Source: Escherichia phage PSD2001
Sequence record: OK254198.1
Length of the DNA: 64,000 nt
Direction: 5' to 3' (one strand)
Shown: in pieces, positions 6,622-58,065 of the stretch
Layout: each line of letters begins with the position of its first letter
How positions within the stretch are numbered: the first letter of the stretch is position 1
Made by a program: the position numbers and the translations under genes
The notes under the pieces: model-generated
Database searches by the model: none
Told to the model about the DNA's origin: nothing
The model's input: the letters and a program-made list of their open reading frames with translations, nothing else

Positions 6622-6903
6622 TCAATCAATATAATCTTCTAAACCAAAATCATCAATTTCTTCTTGAATTTCTCTTAATACTTGTTCTTCATCTAGACCA
6701 GGACCAAAAATCACTTTAGCGTAGCCAGGTCGTTCACTAGAGAATCGAATTGTATATTCCGGTTGAATATAGCCAAAGCTGCTATCCAAATCACAAAGAA
6801 TTTCTGCATAGATTTCGGCTGGAACTGAAGCATGGATTTTAAAAAGCTCATCAATAAGAATAACCAATTCAGTTGCTTGATATGTATGGAGTTTAGTAAT
6901 CAT
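6622..6903 (-). CDS. Acidic small protein, possibly Arn-like anti-restriction protein
   Basis: 93 aa, strongly acidic C-terminus (EEQVLREIQEEIDDFGLEDYID); position between asiA and motA matches T4 arn (92 aa). Not verified. Confidence 0.4.
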   Translation of the reverse strand: MITKLHTYQATELVILIDELFKIHASVPAEIYAEILCDLDSSFGYIQPEYTIRFSSERPGYAKVIFGPGLDEEQVLREIQEEIDDFGLEDYID

Positions 6904-8679: not shown

Positions 8680-8907
8680 TTATCCCTTAATAGATTTCAT
8701 GTAATTTGATGCATATGATTGTACCACAGTACGTTTCATATGGGAAGTAGAAACAATCACATCAATTGCTTGTTTACGTTCTTCTTTAGAGTTTGCCAGT
8801 TTGAACATGTCAAAGTAGTAGTAGCAAGCTTCTTTGTTAGATTTGAATTTGATGTTGATGTATTCTTGACCTTCATTCTGTTGTGCAGTAAACATTTTAT
8901 TCTCCAA
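8680..8907 (-). CDS. Hypothetical protein (75 aa)
   Basis: First ORF downstream of promoter cassette 8945-8974. Confidence 0.45.
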   Translation of the reverse strand: MENKMFTAQQNEGQEYINIKFKSNKEACYYYFDMFKLANSKEERKQAIDVIVSTSHMKRTVVQSYASNYMKSIKG

Positions 8908-10884: not shown

Positions 10885-11334
10885 TTAATAGCTCTGCAGA
10901 ATGAATTTAAAGTTATCAGCAAGCATGCGATTCATTTCTGAAAGGGTCTGACAATCAGAACTATGTGAGCGTGTGAACGCCATCGCAATTTGACCTTTAC
11001 CATAACCAGTTGTCAAAGGTTTCATTTTAGAAACTGGAACAAACAGGACTTCATAGATAACACCATTGTTCGCCATTGTGCGCGACAGTTGTGAACGCTG
11101 TTTGCGGATGTGACTTAATACAGTGTCAAACCCTTGTTGTGAACGTTGGTTACCAACGTAAAAACGTGCAGCAACAATACGTGATTCGCCTTCACCTTTA
11201 ACCACGAAATAAAAACCTGGTTGGGTGATAGCTTCTTTAGTTGGACGCCCTACAACATAATTGCCATTATGGATGTGAGCAACAGTGGTAGCGCCAGCAT
11301 TCAGTACGTCACGACGGGTCATGTAAGTAGTCAT
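10885..11334 (-). CDS. ndd: Nucleoid disruption protein Ndd
   Basis: 149 aa; NAGAT...PGFYF...[28 protein letters not shown]...PLTTG.GKGQ.A.AFTR.H.....[13 protein letters not shown] matches T4 Ndd. Confidence 0.85.
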
Positions 11335-13065: not shown

Positions 13066-13659
13066 TCAGCTTGTAAACCGGTGATAGGGAAATTTTTCTT
13101 CTGAACAAGAACGGAGGTACCAGCCATCCCCTTGTGACTTTTGCACAAGACCAGACTCAGGAACGAAAGCACCAGGTCCAGCAAGGAATTTTGGCTTAAA
13201 ACGATAACCTTTGATAGTCTCTTTTACATTAAACATAATCATAAGGTCAGCAAGCTTGTGTTGCATAAAAGGACCAAGATTGACCCCGTAACCATGCGGA
13301 TAATCGCCCTGGTGACCAGTATGCACGGATATCCATTTGGAACCGGACTGATGAGTCTTGACTTCAATTCTTACGCCTTCTTTCGAAACTACATCAAATG
13401 CAAAGGAATAAGGATTATCGTAATCTTCATCACCGCCGCATAAAAAGCCGGAGGTCCATTTGGCAATAGCTTGTTCTGCCATTGTAGCCACCATACATCT
13501 TTGCATGACTTGCTCACGGTCCTGGCCAGGGTCTTTACGTAATGAATACCTGGCAGTGTCTACAATCTTTTGCAGTGATTCTGGGGTTAAGTCTTCTTTT
13601 GTATAAAGAAAGGAAGGCATCTTTTTCAGATGCTCCCATGTTTTACTCTTCTGAATCAT
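13066..13659 (-). CDS. denB: Putative endonuclease IV (DenB-like)
   Basis: 197 aa; position between ndd and rIIB as T4 denB; FDVVSKEGVRIEVKTHQSGSKWISVHTGH block. Not verified. Confidence 0.45.
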   Translation of the reverse strand: MIQKSKTWEHLKKMPSFLYTKEDLTPESLQKIVDTARYSLRKDPGQDREQVMQRCMVATMAEQAIAKWTSGFLCGGDEDYDNPYSFAFDVVSKEGVRIEVKTHQSGSKWISVHTGHQGDYPHGYGVNLGPFMQHKLADLMIMFNVKETIKGYRFKPKFLAGPGAFVPESGLVQKSQGDGWYLRSCSEEKFPYHRFTS

Positions 13660-29999: not shown

Positions 30000-30281
30000 T
30001 TACAATTTGGCGGCTTGGACTGCTTTATTGGCTTCAGTCATTTTAGCTAGATTTTCAGCAGTAGGATTGACAATGTATTCGGCTGTAGCTTGAGCAAAAA
30101 CATTATGAGTTTCGATTACATTTTTAGCATTTTCAATATTCATATCAATTTCTTGTTTAGATAAATTTTTTAGTTGATTGGCTAAGAGTTCTACAAAGAT
30201 TTCAACATTAGCGTTTTCAATTATATCATTAATATGCTTCTTACGAGCTTTCTTAAGCTGACGTTTATTTAAACGAGGCAT
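30000..30281 (-). CDS. Hypothetical protein (93 aa)
   Basis: Minus-strand ORF between 56 and soc; basic N-terminus. Confidence 0.45.
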   Translation of the reverse strand: MPRLNKRQLKKARKKHINDIIENANVEIFVELLANQLKNLSKQEIDMNIENAKNVIETHNVFAQATAEYIVNPTAENLAKMTEANKAVQAAKL

Positions 30282-30799
30282 TAATAACCTCGGTCCTGAC
30301 GAGCAAAGTTCTCGGCATTTTTCAGGTAATACAGTTTAAAGATTTCTTCTGCAGTCAGTCCAAGACCATGGAACATATTTAGAACGAAATGTAGAATATC
30401 AATCATCTCGAATTTAATTTCTAGCTGGTCTTCAGGAGACAATTCATCAATACGACGATTACGGAATTCAGCATGTTGCGCTTTCCACGGCTTCCAGCAA
30501 CTGGATGCGGCTTTCTCACCATTAGACATGCCACCGAGCGAAGTCAGAAGTTCACGGAATTCGTCGTCAACATAATCTTTCTGGTTGCGAAGCCATGCAA
30601 CAACATCGCCTGCGGTTGCCAATTCATCTGGATGTGCGTTATATTCTGGTTTTTCTGTAGCCAGACGAACCTGCAAAGATTTCTGCATATCAAGCATAAT
30701 CTGCAGAGGGTCATCATTGCCTTTTAGGACATCATTATACGCATCTTGCGCTTTATCAACACCAGCAATCAGTTGAGAACACTCGTTAAAATGAGCCAT
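30281..30799 (-). CDS. 56: dCTP pyrophosphatase (dCTPase/dUTPase) gp56
   Basis: Start at the ATG giving MAHFNEC...; GVDKAQ, DPLQ.MLDMQ, ETAGDVV.W, DDEFRELLTSLG, SPEDQLEIKFE, EEIFKLYYLKN.ENFARQDRGY match T4 gp56. Confidence 0.85.
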   Translation of the reverse strand: MAHFNECSQLIAGVDKAQDAYNDVLKGNDDPLQIMLDMQKSLQVRLATEKPEYNAHPDELATAGDVVAWLRNQKDYVDDEFRELLTSLGGMSNGEKAASSCWKPWKAQHAEFRNRRIDELSPEDQLEIKFEMIDILHFVLNMFHGLGLTAEEIFKLYYLKNAENFARQDRGY

Positions 30800-30859
30800 T
30801 ATATTTTTCCTTATCAATTCATATTGTTTGTATGTTAATTATATCATATTGGTTTAAAG

Positions 30860-30867
30860 CATAAATA
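30860..30867 (+). promoter_or_regulatory. Candidate late-promoter-like box (CATAAATA) on the plus strand
   Basis: 7 of 8 match to TATAAATA, 17 nt upstream of a strong Shine-Dalgarno and ATG. Confidence 0.3.
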
Positions 30868-30883
30868 CAAGAAAGGAGGATGT

Positions 30884-31081
30884 ATGCTCAAACTATCTAG
30901 TCTAATTCAAGCCATCAAAGGCAGTCGTAAGCGAACGATTCTGGTCCTTTCGATACTCTGTTTTGTTCTACTCTGGAATTTCATTGTTGCCCCTATTGCA
31001 TTGACACATGGTGTTATATTACCAGTCGTCGCGCTCGAATCAGTTGTAGATGTTTCACTAGCATTAATCGGCCTTATATAG
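30884..31081 (+). CDS. Small hydrophobic membrane protein (65 aa) encoded antisense to the early gene array
   Basis: AAAGGAGGA Shine-Dalgarno 4 nt before the ATG; two predicted transmembrane helices; only the S/T-rich frame 30907-31116 opposes it. Confidence 0.35.
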   Translation: MLKLSSLIQAIKGSRKRTILVLSILCFVLLWNFIVAPIALTHGVILPVVALESVVDVSLALIGLI

Positions 31082-31189
31082 GTGGAACTTACTGGTTGTG
31101 CCCATCGCTGCAACACAAGGGGTGCACTTACCCCAGGTCACAATGGAACATATCCATTCCATCATCGGTTACTTTACCGGAATCCCTTC

Positions 31190-37073: not shown

Positions 37074-37402
37074 CTCTTTTTCATTTTAATCTTATCAATT
37101 TCATCTTGTATTTGCATTGTAACACACTTTTCTACATGCACTGCAAGCTCCGCTTTGCGGTCTTCAGAAGGGGTGCCGAAATCAACTGAAACTTTTCCAG
37201 ATGGTTCAATTTTAATTCCGGTTACGTACACAATGTGACTGGACCCATCAGGGAGTGATAACAGAATTTCCTGCCGTACAGTTCCCATGGATTGCCGGAT
37301 AATCTCCAAACTTTTTTCGTAGTAAGGTACAGAAGGAGCCTTAGCTCCCTCCGCATCTTTCTCGAAATTATCTAAATCAGATAAATCGATATCATTCATC
37401 AA
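37058..37402 (-). CDS. 40: Head vertex assembly chaperone gp40
   Basis: 114 aa (same as T4 gp40); lies between uvsX and 41, overlapping the gene 41 start. Confidence 0.6.
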   Translation of the reverse strand: MMNDIDLSDLDNFEKDAEGAKAPSVPYYEKSLEIIRQSMGTVRQEILLSLPDGSSHIVYVTGIKIEPSGKVSVDFGTPSEDRKAELAVHVEKCVTMQIQDEIDKIKMKKRWWKW

Positions 37403-38570
37403 GGTCTTCCATCATATCTAAATCGTTTTCGATATCTGCCGCAGATGGTTTTGCCTTACCTTCAGGAGCAGTGTATTTTTCAACCTTGGAGGCAATAAGC
37501 GCATCAACTTCGGCATCAACAACAGCATTGCTATCGATTGCACCCAGTTGGTAATGGCGTTTGATTGCATCACGGAAAGGTTCGTGTTTGAACAGTGGGC
37601 CCCAGAATTCGGTGCAGTTAGTATCTTTTGCGCGCCATGATTTTTCTTCGCGGACCATTTCACCGGTCTCAACATCAAGATATTCACGGTTATACCAACC
37701 AACTTTTGGTTTCACCACAAATCCGATTTCCATTGCCATATCAAGCAGGCCAGAATACGGGTCAATACCGCCATCGAATTTTACATCAATGAAGAATTTA
37801 CTTTTCTCTTTGACCATACGAGATTTTTCGGCGTTCAGAACAAATTGGAAGCCTTCAAGTTCTTTACCAGTTTCTTTAATCTGGCGTTTGCCGATAATGA
37901 ATACGGTGTCCGCGGAATACATAACACCTGTACCGCCGGTCATAACGGTTTTGCTATACATCTCAATCGTCTCGATTGTATGGTTAACCGCGACACAAGG
38001 AATATCCTTGATGCTAAAATACGGGGTAACAATACGGAACAGAGATTTCAGGGATTTGGCACGAGTCATATCACCAACGACTTTTTCGTTCATTGCATCT
38101 TCTGTTTCTTTTTTCGACGCCATGTTACCGATTGAGTCAATAAAGATAATGACTTTTTCACCACGCTCAATTGCTTCAAGCTGATTAACCATATCAACTT
38201 TCAATTGTTCAACCGACTGGATTGGTGTATGGATAACACGTTCCGGGTCAACTTTCATTGCACGAAGATATGCTTCTGTGATACCAAATTCTGAATCATA
38301 GAACAAACAGATTGCATCGGGGTATTTGTTCATATATGCAGAGACCATCGTTAAACCCATATTGGATTTAAAGTGTTTTGACGGACCAGCAAAAATAGTC
38401 AAACCTGACTGCATACCACCATCTAGTGCACCGCTGATTGCAATGTTCAGCATCGGGATTTTTGTACGAACTACATCTTTATCATTAAAGAACTTGGACT
38501 TGGTAAGAGTCGCGGTCATTTTGGATGTAGAAGCTTTAATCAAACGGGATTTCAAATCTGCAATAGACAT
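37392..38570 (-). CDS. uvsX: Recombinase UvsX (RecA/Rad51 family)
   Basis: 392 aa; near-identical blocks to T4 UvsX (MSIADLKSRLIKASTSK, FAGPSKHFKSN, FIDSIGNMASKKETEDA, KFDGGIDPYSGLLDMA). Confidence 0.92.
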   Translation of the reverse strand: MSIADLKSRLIKASTSKMTATLTKSKFFNDKDVVRTKIPMLNIAISGALDGGMQSGLTIFAGPSKHFKSNMGLTMVSAYMNKYPDAICLFYDSEFGITEAYLRAMKVDPERVIHTPIQSVEQLKVDMVNQLEAIERGEKVIIFIDSIGNMASKKETEDAMNEKVVGDMTRAKSLKSLFRIVTPYFSIKDIPCVAVNHTIETIEMYSKTVMTGGTGVMYSADTVFIIGKRQIKETGKELEGFQFVLNAEKSRMVKEKSKFFIDVKFDGGIDPYSGLLDMAMEIGFVVKPKVGWYNREYLDVETGEMVREEKSWRAKDTNCTEFWGPLFKHEPFRDAIKRHYQLGAIDSNAVVDAEVDALIASKVEKYTAPEGKAKPSAADIENDLDMMEDLDE

Positions 38571-38655
38571 TCATTTTTTCCATAGGCACCATTATATTTT
38601 TCTCACAGGTTTAAGATAGGATAATTATATCACTGTATTTTCAGAGCAATTAATG

Positions 38656-39159
38656 TTAGTTAATACCTTGGCGTGCTTTCTCTTTAGCTACACATTTATT
38701 AATATAGCTCAGACGGTTTTGAGCAGAACGCTGATACATATCGCGATACTCATTGGCTTTTGGAGAACCCGTCTCCGCTGCCTGATAAGCTTCAGCGCGC
38801 ATGATGTTTATCTGCATATTGATATATGACATGCAGACCTGTGAAATCTGGTTAACAGTATCCAGGTCATTTTGTCGCTTGGTTTTTGCTTCCAGCTTGG
38901 CAATGATTTCGTCATGCTTCGCCGCTTGCTCGCGTTTGTACTCAATTTCACGTTGAGCATATTTCGCGCAGTTGTTTCCGCATTGATTGTTGTCGCGTTT
39001 GTAGATAAGTCCAGTACCACCTTTGAAATCAAAGGAACCATTATGCACCTGACGGTCCGCAGCAATTCGCGCTTTACCAATCTCGTTGGCATTAACAACA
39101 TCACCCTGGTAAGCACAACCAGATAGCAGCATAACAGCTGCGATAGCTAACTTTTTCAT
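38656..39159 (-). CDS. Lipoprotein (167 aa) of unknown function
   Basis: Signal peptide with lipobox LLSGC; charged helical mature part with six Cys; AGGAAG Shine-Dalgarno overlaps the stop of the upstream peptide. Confidence 0.55.
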   Translation of the reverse strand: MKKLAIAAVMLLSGCAYQGDVVNANEIGKARIAADRQVHNGSFDFKGGTGLIYKRDNNQCGNNCAKYAQREIEYKREQAAKHDEIIAKLEAKTKRQNDLDTVNQISQVCMSYINMQINIMRAEAYQAAETGSPKANEYRDMYQRSAQNRLSYINKCVAKEKARQGIN

Positions 39160-39167
39160 TTTGCTTC

Positions 39168-39311
39168 CTAATTAAAACATTCATAGCGGGCTTGGAGCCC
39201 CAAAAATACCCAACCCAAAATTAAAGTTGGAATCATATGTGGAGTCATTATTGCCCAGTAGATTGACATACTAAAAAATGCAATCAGTACAATAATTGTA
39301 ATTATCTTCAT
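39168..39311 (-). CDS. Small membrane peptide (47 aa)
   Basis: MKIITIIVLIAFFSMSIYWAIMTPHMIPTLILGWVFLGLQARYECFN; ATG overlaps the imm-like stop (ATGA). Confidence 0.35.
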   Translation of the reverse strand: MKIITIIVLIAFFSMSIYWAIMTPHMIPTLILGWVFLGLQARYECFN

Positions 39312-39550
39312 TTTGCTTCCTTGATGATAATTACTTGTGCGTTTGATTTACGTTCAGCAACGAGTGCCCAGATAAATGCAATAAACCATCCGACCATTGT
39401 CCAACCTAACAGGAGGTTAACAAAGAAGATTCCGCAATTACTTTTGGTTCCACGCAGTAGCGCGATAATCCACGGCAGAAAATATGCTAGTGCAGCCAGG
39501 AAGAAAGAACCTGCACCAAGAACAACAGTACCCGCAATTAATGTTTCCAT
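39308..39550 (-). CDS. imm: Superinfection immunity protein (Imm-like)
   Basis: 80 aa with two transmembrane helices and a GWxxxWFIAFIWA-type motif; immediately downstream of gene 43 as T4 imm. Confidence 0.55.
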   Translation of the reverse strand: METLIAGTVVLGAGSFFLAALAYFLPWIIALLRGTKSNCGIFFVNLLLGWTMVGWFIAFIWALVAERKSNAQVIIIKEAK

Positions 39551-39619
39551 TTTAATATCCTTAAGTTATTCATCAGTTGATGAGGTAATCATACGGCAAT
39601 CCATTGCCGTTGTAAACAC

Positions 39620-42334
39620 TTAAAAGTCAAACATGTCAAAAAGAGTTGCTTTCTTTTCGTAATCAACCTTTGCAGCTTCAGAGAAACCTGTTAATGGCTT
39701 AACAAAAGTCTTCTGGAACAGTGTGTTGTAGTCCATCCACTGCAGAACCTGGTCACGGATTTCAATCGGGAGTTCAATCCCAGATGGCCATGCAATCACG
39801 GTTTCACCAAACGGGTTACCAACTTTAAGAGGAAGTACATACACCTTTTCCCCTTCCATGATTTGCGGAACAGTCTTCAGACCTTTAGTTGCACGCATAT
39901 ATGCAAGCACACCTTTGATATGAGCAGGACACTTAAATCCAGGGAAACCGCCTTCATTATATTTCTGGATGTTGTTAACCGATGATACACCAGCGATGGT
40001 CATGTAGTTAAGCTCATTAAATTCCTTATTGAATTCCTTGAAGTATGTCTGCAGAGATTCTTCGCCTTCTTGCAGCATACGGCGGATACATTCTTTCAGA
40101 GCTTTCTGACATGCCTTTGGAGTACTCGACTTTTGAGTTTCCAGACCCATGATTTTCAGTTTCGGAACAGCATATCGCGTGCCTTCCATATCGTACACGT
40201 TCAACGCATAACGCTTCTTCGCCGTCCAGAATCCACCCACACCTTTAGAACCCAGCGGAGGACATGCAATCGCCTCACGGTCCATAAACATAAGGTGCTG
40301 TTTGTTGTTCATGTATTCAGCCAGCTCACGGAAAGCTTTATCGATTGCCGGTTCCAGACGGTCTTTCGCAAACTTGTCCATGAAGTCAACCAGGTGGTTT
40401 GTATCACGGAATTTAGATTCGCCACCAACCTTTTTAATCAGGTTATCGCATTGGATATAAATGGAGTCAGTATCGCCATAGAACACATAAGTTTCGCCGC
40501 TTGTCCCACAAACACTATCGAAGTATTCGTTAACTTTACGCTCAATCCACTGCAATGCAAGTTGTCCGAAAGATGTAATCGCGGTTGCATTTCGCAGGTC
40601 AAAGTAACGGAACCAGATATTGCCCAGAGCGCCATAACAACTGTTGATAAGCAGTTTACGGTTAATCTGTGCGGTCATGCCTGCAACTTCTTCCATCTGT
40701 GCTTTGTACAACATACCATTCAGGACTGTTTGATTCAGACCATGCAAGGTTGTTTTCATATTGTCATCAAAGTCATGACGATAATCAACTTCAGGCTCGG
40801 TTGTACCAGTTCCTGGATTACGCAGAGCTTCCTTAATCAGTTCACCATTACGTTGAGCCGCAAGCATATAGCCTTTGTGTTCTTTACGCTGATTAAACAC
40901 CTTGGTGACTTCTGTCGGAATAATACCCGCAACATCTTTAAAATACATCATACCATTTGGAGCACAACTAAATGTATCAGACGGACGGTCAGCAGTTCCT
41001 GCGATGTATTCATACATCTGGGCTGGTGCAAATGAACCGGCAATCGTTTCTGGACTGATGTTAATCTGTCGGATAATGCTTGGATACAGAGATGTTAAGT
41101 CACAGCTCATTACATATTTGTATGCGTTCGGAATCGGTTCCTTAACAAATGCACCAGGGAATGATTGACGAACATGTGATTTGGTTTCCGGAATGACTTT
41201 GTTTTGAGTCTTCAGGCTGTTAAAGATAATCGCATCCCAAGTTTTGATTGGGCTGAATACAGACTGAATCTGCATTTTTGCATAATAACCCATTGACTGG
41301 CTCAGATTAATAAACTGTCGCTTACGGTCAATCTGCACAACACGATAAACGTCGATGATGTTATAAGAAATATACCGCTGGTGATTTGATTCGCGCAGTT
41401 TAGAAATCGGGCCATCATACGGGAGTTTACCAACACCCAGTTCAGATTCCGCAACATAATCCAACGAATAAGACGGTTGGTTTGTGAAGCTGAACTTTTT
41501 ATACAGGTCCAGATAATCCAGAACAGAGATACCCAGAATCTGAATGATTTCTTGTTCTTCACCAAAGCCATTGTTAATGACCTTAACTTTTGTACGACGA
41601 TGTGGACTCAGACGTTTTGCCGTAGCTTCACCAAATACATTTTTAAGGCGGTTGTAGATATATGGAATATCAAATTTCTCGATGTTCCAACCAGTTAACA
41701 TAACCGGAGTTTTCTCGTTCCAGAATACCAAATACTGCTGGAGCATTTCTTCTTCTGAATCGAAAGCCATATAAACAATTTTTTCCAGGATTTCTTCAGG
41801 GACTTCATCGCCACCGTCTTCCTGCAGCTTAGCAGCAATATCAATAGACCATTGCTCCACAGTGGCGTATGGTGAGCTCAAAAGGTCAAAGACATAGAAT
41901 TTATCGTCTACCGAATCATAGTGCGTCAGGGCATCAATAGGGTGACGTGCTTCAGACGGCTCAGGAAACCCATCGGGAGATGTCACCTCGATATCGAAGT
42001 TAGCAACACGGATTTTACTTGAATCATATTTGATTTCGTGCGGGTAACGGTCGGACAAGTATGCGAGTTTAAAGTCGTCCATACCCATAGCTTCGAGACC
42101 CATGTCATTCATTCGCTTCATCCACTGGGATGCATCACGCATGGAATCGAATTCTTTTTTCACACAACCTTTATTATAGATGTCTGTATACTTTGCAGCT
42201 TGGTCTTCACGGGCGTGCATAAACAAGCATGGAGCATAAGGGATTTCACGAACACGTTCATGACCATTCTTGTCAATATATCGTTCGTGTAGGTTGTCAC
42301 CGATTTGTTCGATAGTTAAATAAAATTCTTGCAT
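39620..42334 (-). CDS. 43: DNA polymerase gp43 (family B)
   Basis: 904 aa; exonuclease and polymerase motifs (FDIEV, NIIDVYRV, DLTSLYPSII, YGDTDS, KKRYALNV); long blocks match RB69 gp43 more closely than T4. Confidence 0.95.
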   Translation of the reverse strand: MQEFYLTIEQIGDNLHERYIDKNGHERVREIPYAPCLFMHAREDQAAKYTDIYNKGCVKKEFDSMRDASQWMKRMNDMGLEAMGMDDFKLAYLSDRYPHEIKYDSSKIRVANFDIEVTSPDGFPEPSEARHPIDALTHYDSVDDKFYVFDLLSSPYATVEQWSIDIAAKLQEDGGDEVPEEILEKIVYMAFDSEEEMLQQYLVFWNEKTPVMLTGWNIEKFDIPYIYNRLKNVFGEATAKRLSPHRRTKVKVINNGFGEEQEIIQILGISVLDYLDLYKKFSFTNQPSYSLDYVAESELGVGKLPYDGPISKLRESNHQRYISYNIIDVYRVVQIDRKRQFINLSQSMGYYAKMQIQSVFSPIKTWDAIIFNSLKTQNKVIPETKSHVRQSFPGAFVKEPIPNAYKYVMSCDLTSLYPSIIRQINISPETIAGSFAPAQMYEYIAGTADRPSDTFSCAPNGMMYFKDVAGIIPTEVTKVFNQRKEHKGYMLAAQRNGELIKEALRNPGTGTTEPEVDYRHDFDDNMKTTLHGLNQTVLNGMLYKAQMEEVAGMTAQINRKLLINSCYGALGNIWFRYFDLRNATAITSFGQLALQWIERKVNEYFDSVCGTSGETYVFYGDTDSIYIQCDNLIKKVGGESKFRDTNHLVDFMDKFAKDRLEPAIDKAFRELAEYMNNKQHLMFMDREAIACPPLGSKGVGGFWTAKKRYALNVYDMEGTRYAVPKLKIMGLETQKSSTPKACQKALKECIRRMLQEGEESLQTYFKEFNKEFNELNYMTIAGVSSVNNIQKYNEGGFPGFKCPAHIKGVLAYMRATKGLKTVPQIMEGEKVYVLPLKVGNPFGETVIAWPSGIELPIEIRDQVLQWMDYNTLFQKTFVKPLTGFSEAAKVDYEKKATLFDMFDF

Positions 42335-45756: not shown

Positions 45757-45769
45757 ACAAGGGTCTGAT

Positions 45770-46486
45770 ATGAATTATAACATCATTTACCAAAAGCTTA
45801 TTAGCAGAGCATTGAATCGCAAATTAACCACATACTCTGAAAGTCATCACATTATACCCCGTTGTATGGGTGGGGCAGACGATGCTTCAAATCTTGTTGA
45901 TTTAACTCCCGAGGAACATTTCGTTTGTCATCAACTGTTGGTCAAAATGCATCCAAATAATGCTTCTTTGGTCTATGCCGCGCGCATGATGACAGTTTCC
46001 TCACCAAACGCCGACAGAAGCAAAAACAAATTATTTGGATGGCTTCGTCGTAAAAACTTGGAAGCTCAACAAAATAAAATTTTCTCCGATGAAACCAGAA
46101 AGAAAATGTCAGAATCCGCCAAATTAAAACCGAGAGTTGAATGTCCACACTGTGGAAAAACCGGTCTCGTTGGCAATATGAATCGTTGGCATTTTGATAA
46201 CTGTTCCAAAGGTCCAAACAAGGTTGTTCATACTATTCCAGAAAAACAAAAGCAAAAAATTTCAGTAGGATTAAAACAAGCTAAACATGAAATTTTAACT
46301 TGTGAATTTTGTGGTCTTGAAGGTAAAAAGTGTGTTATATCCACTCACCAACAATTCTGCAAATCCAATCCAAACCGGAAGAAAAAGGTGGACCCCAAAA
46401 TTCAGTGTCCACATTGTAATGTAGTCGGTACGCCAGCCAATATGAAACGTTGGCATTTTGATAACTGCAAAATGAAGCCTCAATAA
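45770..46486 (+). CDS. HNH homing endonuclease with three C-terminal zinc-finger-like repeats
   Basis: Start at the ATG at 45770 (MNYNIIYQK...); HNH core SESHHIIPRCMGGADDASNLVDLTPEEHFVCH; repeats ECPHCGKTGLVGNMNRWHFDNC, TCEFCGLEGKKC...QQFCKSN, QCPHCNVVGTPANMKRWHFDNC; opposite strand to all neighbours. Confidence 0.7.
   Translation: MNYNIIYQKLISRALNRKLTTYSESHHIIPRCMGGADDASNLVDLTPEEHFVCHQLLVKMHPNNASLVYAARMMTVSSPNADRSKNKLFGWLRRKNLEAQQNKIFSDETRKKMSESAKLKPRVECPHCGKTGLVGNMNRWHFDNCSKGPNKVVHTIPEKQKQKISVGLKQAKHEILTCEFCGLEGKKCVISTHQQFCKSNPNRKKKVDPKIQCPHCNVVGTPANMKRWHFDNCKMKPQ
45770..46486 (+). mobile_element. Free-standing homing endonuclease gene inserted between 45.2 and 46
   Basis: Single opposite-strand gene wedged between conserved replication/recombination genes, the usual arrangement for T-even mob/seg elements. 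Confidence 0.55.
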
Positions 46487-48389: not shown

Positions 48390-48627
48390 CCTTGATGCAT
48401 GATTCAGCCATATGAATTAATGTCTCTGGGGTATCATCTTCCATTACATTAAAGCTAAATTCTACGGCCCAATCGGTGACTACATAGACTTTGATAAGTT
48501 GACCGGTTTCCCGGTCAGTGATAGCTTCAAACCAATACTTAATAGTATTCGGTTGATTATCGTCGTCAACCACATCACATTCGCGGATATGTTCAAGACC
48601 CGCTTCATTAAAATCATAAAGTCTCAC
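48364..48627 (-). CDS. Hypothetical protein (87 aa)
   Basis: Minus-strand ORF between 47 and 46; acidic. Confidence 0.45.
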   Translation of the reverse strand: MRLYDFNEAGLEHIRECDVVDDDNQPNTIKYWFEAITDRETGQLIKVYVVTDWAVEFSFNVMEDDTPETLIHMAESCIKDAYYDEDF

Positions 48628-49643
48628 GGTTGCACCTCAAGGTATAATTTGTTGGCCAATGCTTTGAGAGCTTTTGACTCTTTCTCATTGGCGTCAGGTA
48701 ATGCATCGATATATTCTGCCATCATATCTGTTAAGCGTTTTATGTCTAACTCTTCATCAGAGTCTGATGTGTCAACACTGTTATCAACCTTATTGACAAC
48801 ACGCAATTCATGCACACGCTTTTCTAATTCAGATTCAAACTTGGTCAGGTCTTTATCGACTTTTTCTACAATAACACGGACTGATAAGTCTTTGAAGTCG
48901 TCGTAATTAATAGTTTCGTTTGGATAGAAAATCTTCCGATGCCAGGTGGTTTCATTCGGAATAAATTTCATCTCTTCGGTTTCTGTATCAAATTCCCAGA
49001 ATCCGCGCGGGTCATTCTCATCACCTGCTGTTAATGTCCATGGTGTCCCGATGTACTTAACGTTTGCAGCTTCTGAAATTGTGTGGAAGTGACCAGACCA
49101 AACTTGCTTGTACTTCTTAAGGAAATCAGGCTCAAGTCCGTGAGATTTCAATCCTTTATAGAAATAAAACCCAGTTAATTCCCAGTGACCGATGCAATAT
49201 TCAGCCCCAGAAGTTTTGATGTGTTGATGAATGTCAGTTGCGTTCTCGTCGCACATCCATGGAATCATATCAATCTGGCAACCGTCAAAATCAACAGTCG
49301 TTGGCTTATCATAGATTTTAACATGGTCATACTTATTCAGGAGTTCGGTGATAGCATTAGGATGAATCTTATTCTTCAGATTCATGTCATGATTCCCGAC
49401 TATCGTGTGCATAGTAATTCCTGCTTCACGAAGGAGTTCCATAATCTCACGGCTGAATTCCATCGTCTTATGCGTTACGGCCTTACGGACGTCAAAAATA
49501 TCCCCATATTGAATCCAGACTTTAATCCCATTCGCTTTGGAATATGCAATCGCTTGTAAAATACCATCGCGTTGAATGTTTTGAGCCCATGGGTCGTCAG
49601 CTTTGACACCTAAGTGCCAATCACCTAAATTTAAAATTTTCAT
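48624..49643 (-). CDS. 47: Recombination endonuclease subunit gp47 (Mre11/SbcD-like)
   Basis: Start at the ATG at 49643 (MKILNLGDWHLG), giving 339 aa as in T4 gp47; phosphoesterase motifs GDWH, GDIFD, GNHD. Confidence 0.9.
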   Translation of the reverse strand: MKILNLGDWHLGVKADDPWAQNIQRDGILQAIAYSKANGIKVWIQYGDIFDVRKAVTHKTMEFSREIMELLREAGITMHTIVGNHDMNLKNKIHPNAITELLNKYDHVKIYDKPTTVDFDGCQIDMIPWMCDENATDIHQHIKTSGAEYCIGHWELTGFYFYKGLKSHGLEPDFLKKYKQVWSGHFHTISEAANVKYIGTPWTLTAGDENDPRGFWEFDTETEEMKFIPNETTWHRKIFYPNETINYDDFKDLSVRVIVEKVDKDLTKFESELEKRVHELRVVNKVDNSVDTSDSDEELDIKRLTDMMAEYIDALPDANEKESKALKALANKLYLEVQP

Positions 49644-49783
49644 AAGCCAAGCACCGTTATCGCAATGCAAAATAAAATTACTGAAATGAACCCGTCAGGA
49701 GTAGAAAAGAATCCTATCCAACAAGCTCTTGTGAATGTGTAGAATGCCATGAATAACACGACATATCCTAAAAATAATTCCAT
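49640..49783 (-). CDS. Small hydrophobic peptide (47 aa) translationally coupled to gene 47
   Basis: MELFLGYVVLFMAFYTFTRACWIGFFSTPDGFISVILFCIAITVLGL; GAGGAG Shine-Dalgarno 5 nt upstream; stop overlaps the 47 ATG (ATGA). Confidence 0.35.
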   Translation of the reverse strand: MELFLGYVVLFMAFYTFTRACWIGFFSTPDGFISVILFCIAITVLGL

Positions 49784-49825
49784 ATACTCTCCTCAGTTGG
49801 TTCATTTTATCATCCCGAATATAAA

Positions 49826-49850
49826 GCAAAAAAGGAAGCGCTAGGCTTCC
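49826..49850 (-). terminator. Rho-independent terminator
   Basis: GGAAGC-gcta-GCTTCC hairpin followed by TTTTTT on the minus strand. Confidence 0.55.
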
Positions 49851-50072
49851 TTTCCAATTAATACACCGTACAGAGGTTCGTGAGAAGACCTGAACTTGAT
49901 AGGCTTATAGGTAATAGTACCTTCATTTTCTGCTTTAATGCGAGCGGCTTCAAATTGAAGAATCATCTCGTTTTTGTCAGATTTAATCTTATCAAAATCC
50001 ATCGAATTCATCATTCATATAACCTCTTAAACTTTTTCGTATTCGTCGTTCATTAGCCTGCTGTCCATGTTA

Positions 50073-50279
50073 TCATCGTTGCCACCATTTCTTAAGTTGA
50101 TGTGAGTCTACCCAAACTTTGGATGTCGGCTCAATTTTAACAATACCTTTTGGAACACCATAAGGGCCAAGGAGCTTACATTCGGTTTCGGTCTGCTTGA
50201 TACAGATATCACCATATGAGCGAAATCTGAAAGCGGCCCCTACACGAAGCCGCTTAAACGGTTTATTTACTAATGCCAT
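50073..50279 (-). CDS. Hypothetical protein (68 aa)
   Basis: Minus-strand ORF in the 47-55 interval. Confidence 0.4.
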   Translation of the reverse strand: MALVNKPFKRLRVGAAFRFRSYGDICIKQTETECKLLGPYGVPKGIVKIEPTSKVWVDSHQLKKWWQR

Positions 50280-50574
50280 TTACGATTTCCCAAATTTGTT
50301 TGCGAGTAGTTTCCCACATCAACTTAATCAGGTCTTCCGTAACTGGTTGGCGGTAAATTCCACGCAGTTTAACTAAAGCATATTTGTATGCTTCAAAATT
50401 GTTTTCCAGCACTGCCCCTTGAGCATGCTTATTCAGTCGTGCAATTTCACGAGCATTCTTTTTCAGAATCTTTGCTGCTTGACTCTGTGCTTCGAGTGCG
50501 TTCGCTTCTTCGAGACGTTCCTGTGCTTCTTCAATCTGCTTATCGGTCAGTTGAGAAATATCTGGAGCTTGCAT
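50263..50574 (-). CDS. Hypothetical protein (103 aa)
   Basis: Minus-strand ORF in the 47-55 interval; predicted helical. Confidence 0.45.
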   Translation of the reverse strand: MQAPDISQLTDKQIEEAQERLEEANALEAQSQAAKILKKNAREIARLNKHAQGAVLENNFEAYKYALVKLRGIYRQPVTEDLIKLMWETTRKQIWEIVNGISK

Positions 50575-50575
50575 A

Positions 50576-50827
50576 TTAATCCTTGGGAGTTAACTCAATT
50601 GTAAAATATAGATTAGCATTATCCACATGATAACGGTAATCAACGTTATTATCCGGTGAAGTAAATTCCAGATTCCGGACGTTTAAAGGGTCGATATCAA
50701 TTGGAAGACCTTTTATGTCTCGTAGATAAAGTTTAATGAAATATGGGAGAGCCGTAAAGTCTTCCTCGATTTTATCTAAAAAATCGGTAATATCAAATTG
50801 ATGTTCCATATAAAAAATCCAAATCAC
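50576..50827 (-). CDS. Hypothetical protein (83 aa)
   Basis: Minus-strand ORF overlapping the 3' end of gene 55. Confidence 0.4.
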
Positions 50828-51350
50828 CCTCTTTATCTTTGGCGCTCTTATCAGACCCTGGCGCTTTAACTAAAGAGGATTCGTACTGTGTCATTTTGTC
50901 ATAGATGTCCTGGATAAATGTTTCATCAGCCAGAGCCACCATATCGTCGTCACGTGAATCATATACGTTATGGACGAAGTAGCTATATTTCTTTGCCATT
51001 TCTTTACGTTCTTTTTTGATACGCTGAACGAAAGCATTGAAGCAAGCCATTGTTATGTAAGCATGTGGATTATCGTATTTTGTTTCGTCGAAGTTGTGAA
51101 GACCTTTTATTGCGGCCTCAATTCCGTCTGCTATCATTTCTTGCTTCCAGGATTGGGTATATCCGGAGAAGTTGAAACGTTTGCTAAGACCTTCGGCTAT
51201 AAGCATAATCGCCAGACCGATAACATCGTTCTGGCGAATAATTTTGTTCGGGTCGGTGTTCGCATTCAGCTTCTGTTTCCACTCCGAAATAGCTTTCAAA
51301 AGCTCTTTATTATTTACATAGTTATTCTTGGTTAATTTAATTTCGTTCAT
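50793..51350 (-). CDS. 55: Late-transcription sigma factor gp55
   Basis: 185 aa (same as T4 gp55); long blocks [115 protein letters not shown] match T4 gp55. Confidence 0.92.
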
Positions 51351-51398
51351 ATCGCCTCACTTAGTATATGAATATTATATCATCCTTAATACAAAGCA

Positions 51399-51665
51399 TT
51401 AGCGAAGTAAACAGTAAGCCTGGAAGACCTTCTCCATAATTGCCTTAAATTCATGGATGTCAATATAAGGGATAACCTCGGCATCACTAATGAATTCCAT
51501 CAGACGGTCATGCTCGTTGCGGTATTGTCCTTCATTCAACATACTGATATGGGACTCCCAAGAGCCATACCCTTCTGCGTGTGGGAAGAATGTTATTTTC
51601 ATGAATTCATCCACCCAAAACGTTCCCAGGTCCTGGATGGATATCATTGTATGATTGATGTGCAT
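51399..51665 (-). CDS. Hypothetical protein (88 aa)
   Basis: Minus-strand ORF in the 55-nrdG interval. Confidence 0.45.
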   Translation of the reverse strand: MHINHTMISIQDLGTFWVDEFMKITFFPHAEGYGSWESHISMLNEGQYRNEHDRLMEFISDAEVIPYIDIHEFKAIMEKVFQAYCLLR

Positions 51666-51931
51666 CAGTACACCATCTGGGCAGCTTCTAAAACATCGTC
51701 AAGCTTATCAAACTGGTCAACATAATCAATCCCACCTACTTCATCTTTAGCATACAACCAATACTGGTGGAATTCATATTCAATAATAAAGTGGTCACCT
51801 TCAATCTGGAGAACCCCATCACCATTAAATTGAACTGCATAACCCGTAAAGCGGACATCATTCAGGAGTTCTTCTTTCATAGTAATCATTTCCAAGTTTT
51901 TATCGTAATTAGAGAGTTTTATTTTAATCAT
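51665..51931 (-). CDS. Hypothetical protein (88 aa)
   Basis: Minus-strand ORF abutting neighbours. Confidence 0.45.
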   Translation of the reverse strand: MIKIKLSNYDKNLEMITMKEELLNDVRFTGYAVQFNGDGVLQIEGDHFIIEYEFHQYWLYAKDEVGGIDYVDQFDKLDDVLEAAQMVY

Positions 51932-52187
51932 TTAAGTAGTCCAGGAATTCGTCTAATGTCATGCCTTCCGCCCAAGCTTCCCAAGCATCGATTTTAGTGT
52001 ACTTGGTTTTAGTACACATAGGATAGATTTTGAATTCATACCCCATTGAAATGAAATAATTTAAAGTCCTTTGTAAATAGTAACCTTGACTAATTTTATG
52101 AGCTCGGCGAATTCCATTAGCATACGTATGTTTGTATGATACTATTACCGCAACACCTTCAGGTAATTCAATAGCGGGACACATCAT
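51924..52187 (-). CDS. Hypothetical protein (87 aa)
   Basis: Minus-strand ORF abutting neighbours. Confidence 0.45.
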   Translation of the reverse strand: MMCPAIELPEGVAVIVSYKHTYANGIRRAHKISQGYYLQRTLNYFISMGYEFKIYPMCTKTKYTKIDAWEAWAEGMTLDEFLDYLND

Positions 52188-54508: not shown

Positions 54509-54979
54509 TTAATCATGTTTCCACACCCCATCGGTATTTGACCAAAGTCGCTGATTATCTGACCCTCGCCACAGTTTTTTGGTCGGAAGATTTTTCTCAT
54601 ACTTCCCATCAATAATAACATCAACATATTTAAGCATTTCTAGTTGTTTAATATCTTCAAACTTATATCCTGTCCACAGCCAAATGCTTTTATTGGGATA
54701 AAGATTTTTAATAGTTTGAACCACAGAGTGAATAACATCTCGGTTATCAGGATAGAGAGGGTCTCCTCCAGTTATAGTTAATCCTTCTATATAATCATTA
54801 TTCAAACATTCAATTAATTGTTCTAGTGTTTCACCAGTGAATGGAACACCATTTCTAGCATTCCATGTTGATTTATTATAACACCCTTCGCATTTATGCA
54901 AACAACCTGTAACGAAAAGAACGACCCTACAACCAGGGCCATTCACAAAATCGCAAGGATAAAATCTATCATAATTCAT
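54509..54979 (-). CDS. nrdG: Anaerobic ribonucleotide reductase activating protein NrdG (radical SAM)
   Basis: 156 aa (same as T4 NrdG); Cys cluster CLHKCEGC. Confidence 0.9.
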   Translation of the reverse strand: MNYDRFYPCDFVNGPGCRVVLFVTGCLHKCEGCYNKSTWNARNGVPFTGETLEQLIECLNNDYIEGLTITGGDPLYPDNRDVIHSVVQTIKNLYPNKSIWLWTGYKFEDIKQLEMLKYVDVIIDGKYEKNLPTKKLWRGSDNQRLWSNTDGVWKHD

Positions 54980-56793
54980 TGGTGTTTAACCCTATGCATG
55001 ATTTCTTTATTTTTGCCGAGATTAAATCCACGTTCGTTCGGATTCCCCAAATAGCCGCATGTTCTTCTTATTGTGTTCATCTTTTTAGGGTCAGTTTCTC
55101 CACAAACAGAACAAACAAATCCGTTCTCGGTTGGAGTCATTTCATGGGTACTTCCACATGTAAAACATTTATCTACTGGCATATTAACACCAAAATAATC
55201 TAAATGTTGTGCAGCATAATCCCACACAGCCTCAAGACCTTTTAGGTTATTTTTCATATCAGGAAGTTCAACATAAGAAATGTGACCACCTGTTGCAATG
55301 AAATGATATGGGGCTTCGCGAGAAATCTTTTCAAACGGAGTAATATTTTCTTCTACTGAAACGTGGAAACTGTTAGTGTACCAGCCTTTATCAGTAACAT
55401 CTTTTACACTTCCATATTTTTCGGTATCGAGTTTACAGAAGCGATAACACAGGTTTTCAGCAGGAGTAGAATACAAACTAAAAGCAAATCCGGTTCTTTC
55501 AGTCCACTGCTTAAGACGAGCATTCATTTTAGTTAAAATTTCTTGCCCAATATCACGACCGACAAGAATATCCAATTCGTGAATACCAATGTATCCTAGG
55601 GACACTGAACTTCTACCGTTTTTAAATAACTCAATTATATCATCATCAGGTTTAAGACGAACCCCGAATGCACCTTCTTGATAAAGAATAGGAGCAACAG
55701 TCGCTTTAACTCCTTTTAAGGAACTAATTCTACACATCAAAGCTTCAAAACATAAATCCATTCGTTCATTGAACAATTCGGCAAATTTCTGTTCATTGAA
55801 CTGTGTTCCAATATAAGAATCTAACGCAATACGAGGAAGATTCAGTGTTACAACACCAAGATTATTACGTCCATCAAGAATTTCATTACCAGTCGAATCT
55901 TTCCATACGCCCAAGAAACTACGGCAACCCATTGGAGAAACAGGAATAGATGAACCTGTGATAGCTTTGTTATTCTTAGCTGAAATGATATCAGGATACA
56001 TTCTTTTGCTTGCACACTCTAAAGCAAGCTGCTTAATATCATAGTTCGGGTCGTCTTTATAAAGATTAACACCTTCTTCAACGAACATAACAAGTTTAGG
56101 GAAAATAGGAGTTATCCCATCACGACCAAGACCTTTAATACGATTTTTCAGAATTGCTTTCTGAATCATTCGTTCAGTCCAATCAGTTCCCGTACCAAAT
56201 GTAATGGTTACAAAAGGCGTTTGTCCATTTGAACTAAAGAGAGTATTTACTTCATATTCATAAGCTTGGAATGCATCGTATACGTCTTTTTCTGTTTTAG
56301 ATTGGGCATAATTCAATGCATCAGTGATTTGCCATTTTTCTGCGTCTTCAATATGTTTTGCGTATGTACGTTTAACATAAGGAGAAAATACTTTGTCTAC
56401 ATTAGCAAAAGTCGTTCCGCCATATTGGTGAGAAGCAACTTGTGCAGTAATTTGTGCCATAATTGCAGTAGCAACACCAATTGATTTAGGAGTTTCAATC
56501 TGTGCATTACCGAGTTTAAATCCGTTCTCAAGCATTCCTTTTAAATCTACTAAACAGCAATTAGTAAATGGAAGAGCAGGGGAATAATCAATATCATGGA
56601 AATGAATAATTCCGCTTTCATGTGCTTTCATAATAAAAGACGCGACCATATTTTTGGCAATGTGTTTAGATACAATACCAGCCATAAGGTCACGTTGAGT
56701 TGGAAAAACACGAGAATCTTTATTAGCATTCTCGTTTAAAAGGTCTTTATTAGTTTTATGAATCAATCCTTCAATTTCGTTTTCAATTGTCAT
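54976..56793 (-). CDS. nrdD: Anaerobic ribonucleoside-triphosphate reductase NrdD, intron-less
   Basis: 605 aa (same as T4 NrdD); C-terminal glycyl-radical motif RRTCGYLG and Cys-rich zinc site CFTCGSTHEM...CSVCG; single uninterrupted frame. Confidence 0.9.
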   Translation of the reverse strand: MTIENEIEGLIHKTNKDLLNENANKDSRVFPTQRDLMAGIVSKHIAKNMVASFIMKAHESGIIHFHDIDYSPALPFTNCCLVDLKGMLENGFKLGNAQIETPKSIGVATAIMAQITAQVASHQYGGTTFANVDKVFSPYVKRTYAKHIEDAEKWQITDALNYAQSKTEKDVYDAFQAYEYEVNTLFSSNGQTPFVTITFGTGTDWTERMIQKAILKNRIKGLGRDGITPIFPKLVMFVEEGVNLYKDDPNYDIKQLALECASKRMYPDIISAKNNKAITGSSIPVSPMGCRSFLGVWKDSTGNEILDGRNNLGVVTLNLPRIALDSYIGTQFNEQKFAELFNERMDLCFEALMCRISSLKGVKATVAPILYQEGAFGVRLKPDDDIIELFKNGRSSVSLGYIGIHELDILVGRDIGQEILTKMNARLKQWTERTGFAFSLYSTPAENLCYRFCKLDTEKYGSVKDVTDKGWYTNSFHVSVEENITPFEKISREAPYHFIATGGHISYVELPDMKNNLKGLEAVWDYAAQHLDYFGVNMPVDKCFTCGSTHEMTPTENGFVCSVCGETDPKKMNTIRRTCGYLGNPNERGFNLGKNKEIMHRVKHQ

Positions 56794-56988: not shown

Positions 56989-58065
56989 TCAGTTGTTTTT
57001 TAAATACTGTATATAGCTTTCTAGCCATACTGTTAAGTTATCTCTTTCAGTTTGAGATAACGGATTAACCATATCTTTGAAAAAGTTTAATTCCATTTGT
57101 GAAACTTTTTCATGTCGAACTGTTTTGACTAAATTCATGGTTGCAAGTTTTGCTTTATGAGATTTTTTGTCTTCCATAACTAACTTTTTAATTTTTCCAT
57201 CTTTTAATATTTTTGCACAACCACCGCGCCCGACACCAAAATGTTGTTCAACATCAGCGTTCGATATAAATTTTACACTATCATCAACCAAAGCAAATTT
57301 GTATCTTTGTCGTGCAATGGTCGGGGGTAAGCCCCAACGTTCCTGGATTAGGTCCAAATCACCCTGTAACAGTCTGGTTAAATGACTTGCAGAGATTTTG
57401 TTTTCTTGTGCGAACTTGGTTTGGTTAACGACTTCAACTTCCGTATTAGTCTGGTAATCCCAAATTTTATACGAAGAGCAATTGGTAATTATTCCGTGTT
57501 TTTCGGAACGAGACCGCCCAAACTGCCAACCCTTTGTCAAATAATTTTCAACTTCTTCAGGTTTAACATATTTGGTTTTCTGGCCCATTTTATACATCAC
57601 GGGCCAATTAACATGTTCATTGCCTTTATCAAATTCAATCCATCGGGCAATATCGTCTTGAGTCAAATCATCAAAGCAGTTGGGGTTGAAATGTCCACCA
57701 ATCTGTTTATTGAGCCACATTGGGTCACGCAAAACATCATTAGCTAGTTGCATTTCCATTTCAGCCATAAGAGTTTTACCCCAAGTTGGATACCAACCCA
57801 CGATAATCATTTCTTTTGGCTTTATACCATTTTCTAGAATTGAGTTTAACTCATTTGATGATGATGTGTAGGTTTTCCAATCAGATTCTTCAAAACCTTT
57901 TTTGGGACCGCGCTTGAATGTACATGGAGCTGCTTTGATTCGTTTCCAAATCTTTTTAGCGCCAACATATTTGTGACCATCTTCAAATGTAATTACATAT
58001 ACAAATCCCAAATATTGATTGATGTCAGCTTCTTCAAATACTGACCAATGACCATAATCAGACAT
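56989..58065 (-). CDS. GIY-YIG homing-endonuclease-like protein (358 aa) in the gene 49 slot
   Basis: N-terminus GFVYVITFEDGHKYVGAKKIWKRIK resembles the GIY-(10)-YIG core and following basic residues of I-TevI/Seg enzymes; last about 18 aa (DNLTVWLESYIQYLKNN) resemble a mid-region of T4 gp49. Confidence 0.55.
   Translation of the reverse strand: MSDYGHWSVFEEADINQYLGFVYVITFEDGHKYVGAKKIWKRIKAAPCTFKRGPKKGFEESDWKTYTSSSNELNSILENGIKPKEMIIVGWYPTWGKTLMAEMEMQLANDVLRDPMWLNKQIGGHFNPNCFDDLTQDDIARWIEFDKGNEHVNWPVMYKMGQKTKYVKPEEVENYLTKGWQFGRSRSEKHGIITNCSSYKIWDYQTNTEVEVVNQTKFAQENKISASHLTRLLQGDLDLIQERWGLPPTIARQRYKFALVDDSVKFISNADVEQHFGVGRGGCAKILKDGKIKKLVMEDKKSHKAKLATMNLVKTVRHEKVSQMELNFFKDMVNPLSQTERDNLTVWLESYIQYLKNN

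Follow-up and report, generated by a model that had tools for sequence, protein, structure and literature searches.

A Gaprivervirus phage without alpha-glucosyltransferase and a thymidylate synthase substitution that points to 5-methylcytosine as its probable DNA base

In the glucosyl-5-hydroxymethylcytosine (glucosyl-hmC) system of bacteriophage T4, genetics has assigned the glucosylation of DNA to the alpha- and beta-glucosyltransferase genes, a-gt and b-gt. The first is found between genes 47 and 55, in an interval of 3152 bp that contains 47.1, a-gt (400 amino acids, aa), mobB and the small open reading frames (ORFs) a-gt.2 to a-gt.5, and the second between uvsX and gene 43, in a slot that contains segA, b-gt, 42, imm and imm.1. 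Here we consider these two regions in Escherichia phage PSD2001, using a stretch of 64,000 nucleotides from record OK254198.1 (called the window, and to which all positions refer unless stated otherwise), with the whole VR7 genome and the part of the P479 genome that the window does not cover as evidence from beyond it. The window contains neither transferase gene. Gene content, synteny and the distribution of an Asn-to-Asp substitution at residue 177 of the thymidylate synthase (N177D) were computed here, what is said of VR7 DNA and of the N177D enzymes comes from the literature, and from these we infer that cytosine is probably replaced by 5-methylcytosine (5mC) in the genus Gaprivervirus, to which this phage belongs.

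The base of RB69 is arabinosylated 5-hydroxycytosine rather than hmC and is made by a homologue of ThyA (PMC13326640). In RB69 the uvsX-43 slot holds an eleven-gene 5-hydroxycytosine and arabinose cluster, and Gaprivervirus is not among the genera listed with the arabinosylation cluster (PMC13326640). For Gaprivervirus, of which VR7 (NC_014792; Straboviridae; Tevenvirinae; Gaprivervirus) is a member, a comparative study found no known enzyme for a non-canonical base, yet DenA, DenB, Alc and dCTPase, and suggested an unknown protein (PMC8056088, 2021); the same study listed Acinetobacter phages 133 and ZZ1 as the other lineages in which DenB, Alc and dCTPase occur without a known modifying enzyme. 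Gaprivervirus lacks gene 42 (PMC8056088, PMC12115623), and its base was left as an 'unknown non-canonical base' (PMC8056088; PMC12115623, 2025), and our literature search returned no paper that names it. In a study of the bacteriophage exclusion (BREX) system of Escherichia coli, VR7 DNA, either treated with T4 beta-glucosyltransferase or left untreated, was tested with enzymes that are sensitive to methylation and glycosylation: T4 and VR5 were reported as glycosylated, T4147 as hydroxymethylated and VR7 as having 'modified cytosines' and being unglycosylated, and BREX restricted VR7 fully, by more than 10^11, like unglycosylated T4 (PMC6326788).

Using megablast with positions 48500-52000 against the phage collection, we recovered 43 records with at least 80% query coverage, the top ones all from Gaprivervirus, with nucleotide identities of 98.0% for P479, 97.4% for P896, 96.6% for VR20, 96.2% for SP18 and 94% for VR7. 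Other segments of the window match the same genomes piecewise at 90-97%, and the source phage is a mosaic member of Gaprivervirus with 90-98% identity to any single record. Its interval between genes 47 and 55 (49644-50792, 1149 bp) contains five minus-strand ORFs of 47, 57, 68, 103 and 77-83 aa and a hairpin. No match to T4 a-gt was found between the two genes, where the largest ORF has 103 aa, and the best matches to it overall have tblastn E-values of 5.8 (window) and 1.9 (VR7) and a phmmer E-value of 0.37. The surplus in the T4 interval corresponds exactly to a-gt and the homing endonuclease gene mobB, and intervals without a-gt are also found in RB69 (987 bp) and VR7 (1034 bp). A first-pass annotation, made from the letters of the window, had described this interval as holding only small ORFs and a terminator, without alpha-glucosyltransferase, and tblastn, the ORF map and the conservation of the hairpin all bear it out. 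The absence of a-gt is real, yet it is an already-known property of Gaprivervirus.

The uvsX-43 slot (38571-39619, minus strand), between uvsX (37392-38570) and gene 43 (39620-42334), encodes on the minus strand a lipoprotein of 167 aa (38656-39159), a membrane protein of 47 aa (39168-39311) and Imm, of 80 aa (39308-39550); the PHROG evidence for its contents is a match to phrog_1754. There is no ORF of about 350 aa in it, and T4 b-gt gives a best tblastn E-value of 4.6 and a best phmmer E-value of 0.69, so that the absence of b-gt from this slot, also claimed by the first-pass annotation, is confirmed. Gene 42, a point on which that annotation was silent, and an RB69-type arabinose cluster are missing from the slot too, and the slot is equally empty in VR7, SP18 and P479.

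At a tblastn threshold of E<=0.1, T4 a-gt, b-gt, gp42 and dam and RB69 ORF003c and gp45-gp55 had no match in the window, in whole VR7 or in the P479 remainder, with the sole exception of RB69 gp48, which matches td weakly. Over the same sequences, phmmer with transferase queries returned only noise, and the RB69 arabinosylation genes (ORF003c, gp50 and gp51-55) were matched by neither program. Among all 2521 six-frame ORFs with 50 aa or more, a profile hidden Markov model (HMM) of the ThyA family detected td alone (E 6e-93, the next ORF at 0.12). The search for gene 42 that the first-pass annotation had proposed found none by tblastn or HMM in the window, whole VR7 or the P479 remainder, and no enzyme of the gene 42 or RB69 gp48 type, with Asp177 and an acidic residue 143, was detected besides a canonical-type td with Leu143. 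Pfam scans that covered 40 ORFs of the window and 10 of VR7, 50 in all, gave no glycosyltransferase, methyltransferase, TET or additional ThyA domain; for proteins of GT-A or GT-B fold, these scans, which use family profiles only and leave nrdC.4 and nrdC.6 without a family, gave no Pfam glycosyltransferase family in the 40 window ORFs. No homologue of T4 Dam was found in the window or VR7; at 30818-31189, between genes 56 and 61, there is no dam, and there is no segF beside gene 56, in contrast to T4. The pattern is genus-wide: Gaprivervirus has neither the hmC pathway (42, a-gt and b-gt) nor the RB69-type arabinosyl-5-hydroxycytosine pathway.

The genes that exclude cytosine and attack host DNA are, as in T4, present. 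The window encodes on its minus strand the dCTPase/dUTPase gene 56 (30281-30799; tblastn 70% identity to T4 gp56 over 172 aa, E 7e-80), a homologue of endonuclease IV, denB (13066-13659; 46% to T4, E 6e-51), whose T4 product attacks cytosine-containing DNA, and the nucleoid disruption gene ndd (10885-11334; 61% to T4, E 5e-60). VR7, SP18 and P479 have these three genes in common with it, and gp1, cd, alc and denA are present in its relatives, the gp1 homologue in VR7 and P479 and the cd gene being of T4 type. In VR7 (L003:36496-37243) and P479 (L008:19727-20477), the ORFs annotated as Alc-like are two adjoining ones of 77 and 167 aa, which may represent either a duplication or a split gene. 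The first-pass annotation had listed 56, a denB-like gene and ndd correctly and concluded that the phage probably excludes cytosine and does not glucosylate hmC in the T4 way. The genes are absent and present as it stated and its conclusion on T4-type glucosylation is right, but it also assumed hmC. As the genus has no gene 42, hmC is probably not available as a target for glycosylation.

A candidate for the missing enzyme is td, the only ThyA-family gene of VR7, which adjoins frd in VR7 and P479. In this family, Asn177 sets the pyrimidine specificity, and N177D changes the substrate from deoxyuridine monophosphate (dUMP) to deoxycytidine monophosphate (dCMP), with 5-methyl-dCMP (5mdCMP) as product (PMC8670742; PMC13326640). 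When VR7 Td is aligned with E. coli ThyA, RSVDVFLGLPFDIGSY stands against RSCDVFLGLPFNIASY, with Asp at Asn177. The motif is GLPFDIGSY in VR7 Td and GLPFNIASY in both E. coli ThyA and T4 Td, and when it is aligned with 1TIS, the crystal sequence of T4 Td, the alignment is gapless around the motif and gives the identical Asn-to-Asp change. VR7 Td retains R21, E58, W80, Y94, R126, R127, L143, C146, H147, Q165, R166, S167, D169, H207 and Y209, and the machinery for reductive methyl transfer is kept, both in the folate and hydride residues and in the dihydrofolate reductase partner, frd.

All nine Gaprivervirus Td examined have Asp177 (VR7, P479, the SP18 cluster of 73 member sequences, Yersinia phage YenM_P8, two metagenomic clusters, VR20, VR25 and VR26), while Asn177 is found in 132 of 132 other T4-like Td, made up of 116 best homologues and 16 Dhakavirus, Mosigvirus and Tequatrovirus loci. 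Alongside Asp177, a further 30 differences are fixed in the Gaprivervirus enzymes, A179G, A182G and F149L among them. They are 65-69% identical to ordinary T-even Td and only 30% identical to the dCMP methylase of Xanthomonas phage Xp12, which also has Asp, so that a T-even td was altered in place rather than imported, and the Asp of Xp12 and that of Gaprivervirus have independent origins. Acinetobacter phages 133 (L094:28517-29464) and ZZ1 (L095:18347-19279), both without gene 42, also have a td with Asp (PFDIASY) and Leu143, and a 20-30 residue insertion ahead of the catalytic Cys. As their Td are only 53% identical to VR7 Td, the change from Asn177 to Asp arose at least twice, and the two phages may share the predicted 5mC chemistry. 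In the control Acj61, a phage with homologues of gp42 and of arabinosyltransferases, this site of the Td is Asn.

Two systems in which the same substitution has been described are available for comparison. Xp12, whose DNA has complete 5mC, resembles Gaprivervirus in having an Asp177 enzyme of the ThyA family, a dihydrofolate reductase and a gene of the dCMP-deaminase family, and the chemistry proposed here is identical. It is however an unrelated siphovirus, its synthase is 30% identical and different at positions 143, 147 and 165, and its three genes form one cluster with a deaminase of the 5mC-selective type, whereas the Gaprivervirus enzyme is a T4-type Td. In laboratory mutants of thymidylate synthase, N177D in E. 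coli and N229D in Lactobacillus casei, a single Asn-to-Asp change is reported to give a dCMP methylase (cited in PMC8670742 and PMC13326640); the Gaprivervirus change, known here from sequence, is by contrast natural, fixed in the genus and accompanied by the other fixed differences. Co-expressed with T4 gp1, five of seven metavirome Asp177 enzymes gave 5-methyldeoxycytidine in E. coli DNA, gp1 accepts 5mdCMP, and phages of the Xp12 type obtain thymidine triphosphate by deamination of 5-methyl-dCTP and need no separate thymidylate synthase (bioRxiv 10.1101/2024.12.05.627091).

The route that we propose would begin with gp56, which would convert dCTP and dCDP to dCMP and empty the dCTP pool. 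Td with Asp177 would then methylate dCMP to 5mdCMP with the help of Frd, and the gp1 kinase for deoxynucleoside monophosphates (dNMP), with the host kinase for nucleoside diphosphates (NDP), would raise 5mdCMP to 5-methyl-dCTP for incorporation by the polymerase. For the two ancillary functions of this route, removal of the dCTP pool and a dNMP kinase, there are gp56 in the window and a gp1 homologue in VR7 and P479. Thymidine monophosphate would, we infer, come from deamination of 5mdCMP by Cd, from host ThyA with the phage thymidine kinase (Tk), or from both. DenB, Alc, Ndd and DenA would act on the cytosine-containing DNA of the host, DenB and Ndd being encoded in the window and Alc and DenA in relatives. 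Such a base would also explain why there is no gene for a DNA glycosyltransferase and why the a-gt and b-gt slots are empty, because 5mC has no hydroxyl group and is no substrate for these enzymes. The fuller account, to which we give about an even chance, is that a single Asn-to-Asp change made a dCMP methylase out of the phages' own thymidylate synthase in Gaprivervirus and, independently, in 133 and ZZ1. Their cytosine would be completely replaced by 5mC and no true thymidylate synthase would be left, thymidylate coming from 5mdCMP deamination or from the host; with gene 42 and all DNA glycosyltransferases shed, the chemistry of hydroxylated cytosine would have been abandoned.

Arn inhibits McrBC, a nuclease that cuts both 5mC and 5hmC DNA. 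At the position of T4 arn the window has a minus-strand ORF of 93 aa (6622-6903) that matches phrog_8202 (E 2e-40) and, over nearly its full length, phrog_3151, 'inhibitor of MrcBC restriction' (E 5e-6), with no direct tblastn match to T4 Arn. An Arn-like protein, as suggested by this distant profile match, would make sense for unglycosylated DNA modified at C5. VR7 has other small ORFs at this position and no Arn-like ORF. On some records, ORFs at 48.5-52 kb are labelled 'anti-restriction nuclease'; we did not retain these labels, as PHROG scans of the window ORFs at 48.2-52.5 kb gave only families of unknown function.

Several points weigh against 5mC as the base. The td gene lies outside the window, and Asp177 is predicted for this phage from its nine relatives. 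The BREX study left the VR7 modification unnamed (PMC6326788), and our literature search found no nucleoside analysis of any Gaprivervirus DNA. A hydrophobic residue 143, which we had considered decisive for methyl over hydroxymethyl transfer, was dropped as such, since Xp12 aligns there with Asn; because the residue-143 rule is not universal, the argument for methyl transfer rests on the canonical site as a whole and on frd as its partner. The Cd enzyme is here the product of an ordinary T4-type gene situated away from td, while the Xp12-type deaminase is 5mC-selective and clusters with its synthase. McrBC, McrA and Mrr would be expected to act on DNA with full 5mC, yet VR7 does without an Arn-like ORF. 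Finally, nrdC.4 (329 aa) and nrdC.6 (280 aa) belong to no Pfam family, and both have T4 homologues. A second deaminase is not among the candidates kept: VR7ORF147c, annotated as deaminase-like, gives no match in Pfam, and unrelated small ORFs contain copies of its C-terminal part. This part is a small repeated domain, 39-42% identical in two further small ORFs, and one of these lies immediately upstream of motA in the window (loci 8692-8868, minus strand, L002:15136-15561 and L009:40277-40495).

A different cytosine modification, in which 5mdCMP is processed further or an unrecognised enzyme is hidden among the ORFs of unknown function, is in our opinion unlikely. It would fit with the base having been left open by both comparative studies (PMC8056088 and PMC12115623), with the many small ORFs (the majority) that have no known function, and with the precedent of RB69, where a ThyA homologue performs an unexpected chemistry. 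However, the Gaprivervirus Td retains the full canonical site for reductive methylation and its frd partner, the synthases for 5-hydroxymethyl and 5-hydroxy bases carry in addition an acidic residue at position 143 (PMC13326640) and are only distantly related to it, and no further modification enzyme was detected.

We consider it less likely still that the base is hmC without glucose, with either a hydroxymethylase that is hidden or non-homologous or the Asp177 Td itself as its source. The Arn-like protein is compatible with 5hmC as it is with 5mC, gp42 likewise has Asp177, and BREX restricts VR7 as it does the unglycosylated hmC mutant T4147. Against this, profile searches found no gp42-like protein, and Td, with Leu143, a C-terminal lid and a neighbouring frd, is typical of reductive methyl transfer; moreover the supplement of the BREX study, in which T4 beta-glucosyltransferase was tested, calls T4147 'hydroxymethylated' and VR7 merely 'modified'.

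Ordinary cytosine, with gp56, denB and alc homologues that have drifted and a Td substitution neutral for specificity, is very improbable. Homologues of dCTPase/dUTPase and denA do occur in T4-like genera presumed to have plain cytosine (PMC12115623 Table 4), but Alc and DenB are restricted to lineages with modified bases (PMC8056088, PMC12115623), restriction analysis of VR7 reports modified cytosines, and Asn177, invariant in the 132 other Td, is replaced in three lineages that lack gene 42.

The first-pass annotation had favoured another sugar on cytosine, as in RB69, with transferases encoded elsewhere, and it was right that the polymerase resembles that of RB69 (gp43 is 75% identical to RB69 gp43 and 60% to T4 gp43); the 47-55 interval also resembles that of the Mosigvirus RB69, with no a-gt and the terminator kept. 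RB69 has however a 5-hydroxy-dCMP synthase (gp48), NDP-arabinose genes, two arabinosyltransferases and a Td with Asn177, and this reading can be set aside as extremely improbable: homologues of ORF003c, gp48, gp50 and the NDP-arabinose genes are lacking from the window, whole VR7 and the P479 remainder, the uvsX-43 slot, home of the RB69 cluster, is nearly empty here, VR7 DNA is reported as unglycosylated (PMC6326788), and Gaprivervirus does not appear in the list of genera with the cluster (PMC13326640). Replacement of cytosine by 5mC is therefore the reading that we retain.

With respect to T4, neither the window nor the relatives searched have gene 42, b-gt, dam or a-gt with its neighbour mobB, a close Arn is missing too, and the relatives have Asp in Td where T4 has Asn177, but the gene order and the flanking 47.1 and a-gt.2 to a-gt.5 are conserved. 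All features of the 47-55 region are on the minus strand. Gene 47 (48624-49643), for the SbcD-like recombination nuclease subunit, encodes 339 aa, 97% identical to VR7 gp47 and 72% to T4 gp47, from an ATG at 49643, the mechanical ORF extending to a TTG at 49670. Its start overlaps by 4 bases with the stop of the 47.1 homologue (49640-49783), which encodes a predicted membrane peptide of 47 aa (tblastn 80% to T4 gp47.1, E 4e-21; phrog_6693, E 6e-31). The homologues of a-gt.2 (49841-50014, 57 aa; tblastn E 9e-17 to T4; DUF5486, E 6e-20), a-gt.3 (50073-50279, 68 aa; E 2e-13; phrog_1648, E 1e-27) and a-gt.4 (50263-50574, 103 aa; E 3e-22; DUF2654, E 9e-25) are of unknown function. They are followed by a-gt.5 (50576-50809; E 3e-12; DUF5491, E 2e-12), which has 77 aa from an ATG at 50809, its ORF extending to a GTG at 50827; as in T4, the gene shares 17 bases with the end of gene 55. 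Gene 55 itself (50793-51350), for the late-transcription sigma factor, is 100% identical to VR7 gp55 and 80% to T4 gp55. The small ORFs 47.1 and a-gt.2 to a-gt.5 therefore correspond to those of T4 both in sequence and in order, and the PHROG and DUF families that the five match all have no assigned function.

Between 47.1 and a-gt.2 there is a hairpin with a U-rich tail resembling an intrinsic terminator (49819-49855, minus strand), with an 11-bp stem and a 5-nt loop that contains the a-gt.2 stop codon. The hairpin proper (49855..49829, minus strand) has a folding energy of -13.2 kcal/mol (z -1.6), which by itself is unremarkable. It is kept in P479, VR7 and RB69, and in the alignment the variation of the RB69 stem consists of paired, compensatory changes. 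Its position is the point where T4 has mobB and a-gt. The abutting 47.1 shows a clean 140-bp presence or absence in the alignment, being found in the window and P479 and not in VR7 or RB69. Because the T4 cassette is positioned at this junction and 47.1 comes and goes beside it, genes have been gained and lost repeatedly at the 47.1/terminator junction. The compact order 47, 47.1, terminator, a-gt.2 to a-gt.5, 55 is the arrangement common to the T-even relatives outside Tequatrovirus, and VR7, SP18 and P479 have the same small ORFs and terminator in a 47-55 region with 94-98% DNA identity to the window.

The window differs from VR7 in having 47.1, the Arn-like ORF, nrdD and nrdG, and additional endonuclease genes of the HNH and GIY-YIG types. 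The HNH homing-endonuclease gene (45767-46486, plus strand) lies between 45.2 and gene 46, antisense to every neighbouring gene; the N-terminus of its product is 44% identical to T4 MobB (E 3e-26; phrog_655, E 6e-67), and VR7 has no gene at this site. A SegE-like GIY-YIG homing endonuclease of 358 aa (56989-58065, minus strand; PF19835, E 2e-32) is encoded next to nrdD and nrdG (54509-56793), which are missing from VR7 and present in P479 and SP18. In the tail-fibre region, which is about 90% identical to known genomes and only piecewise, gp38 (4640-5425, plus strand) is a T2/T6-type tail-fibre adhesin of 261 aa (PF05268, E 7e-75), and the annotated gp38 of VR7 is shorter.

The N177D td offers a specific and testable answer to the Gaprivervirus base problem left by the two comparative studies of 2021 and 2025, whose authors withhold a recommendation for therapeutic use of these phages in view of their machinery for killing cytosine DNA without a known enzyme for a replacement base. 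If the reading is true, Gaprivervirus would supply a useful enzyme, a dCMP methylase that is natural and well expressed and that stands close to the Td of T4, itself well studied. The phages would be sensitive to BREX, as seen for VR7, and to 5mC-dependent nucleases (McrBC, MspJI-type and Mrr), and defence systems specific for glucosyl-hmC would be without effect on them. It would also mean that the evolutionary path between types of DNA modification can be short inside one phage family.

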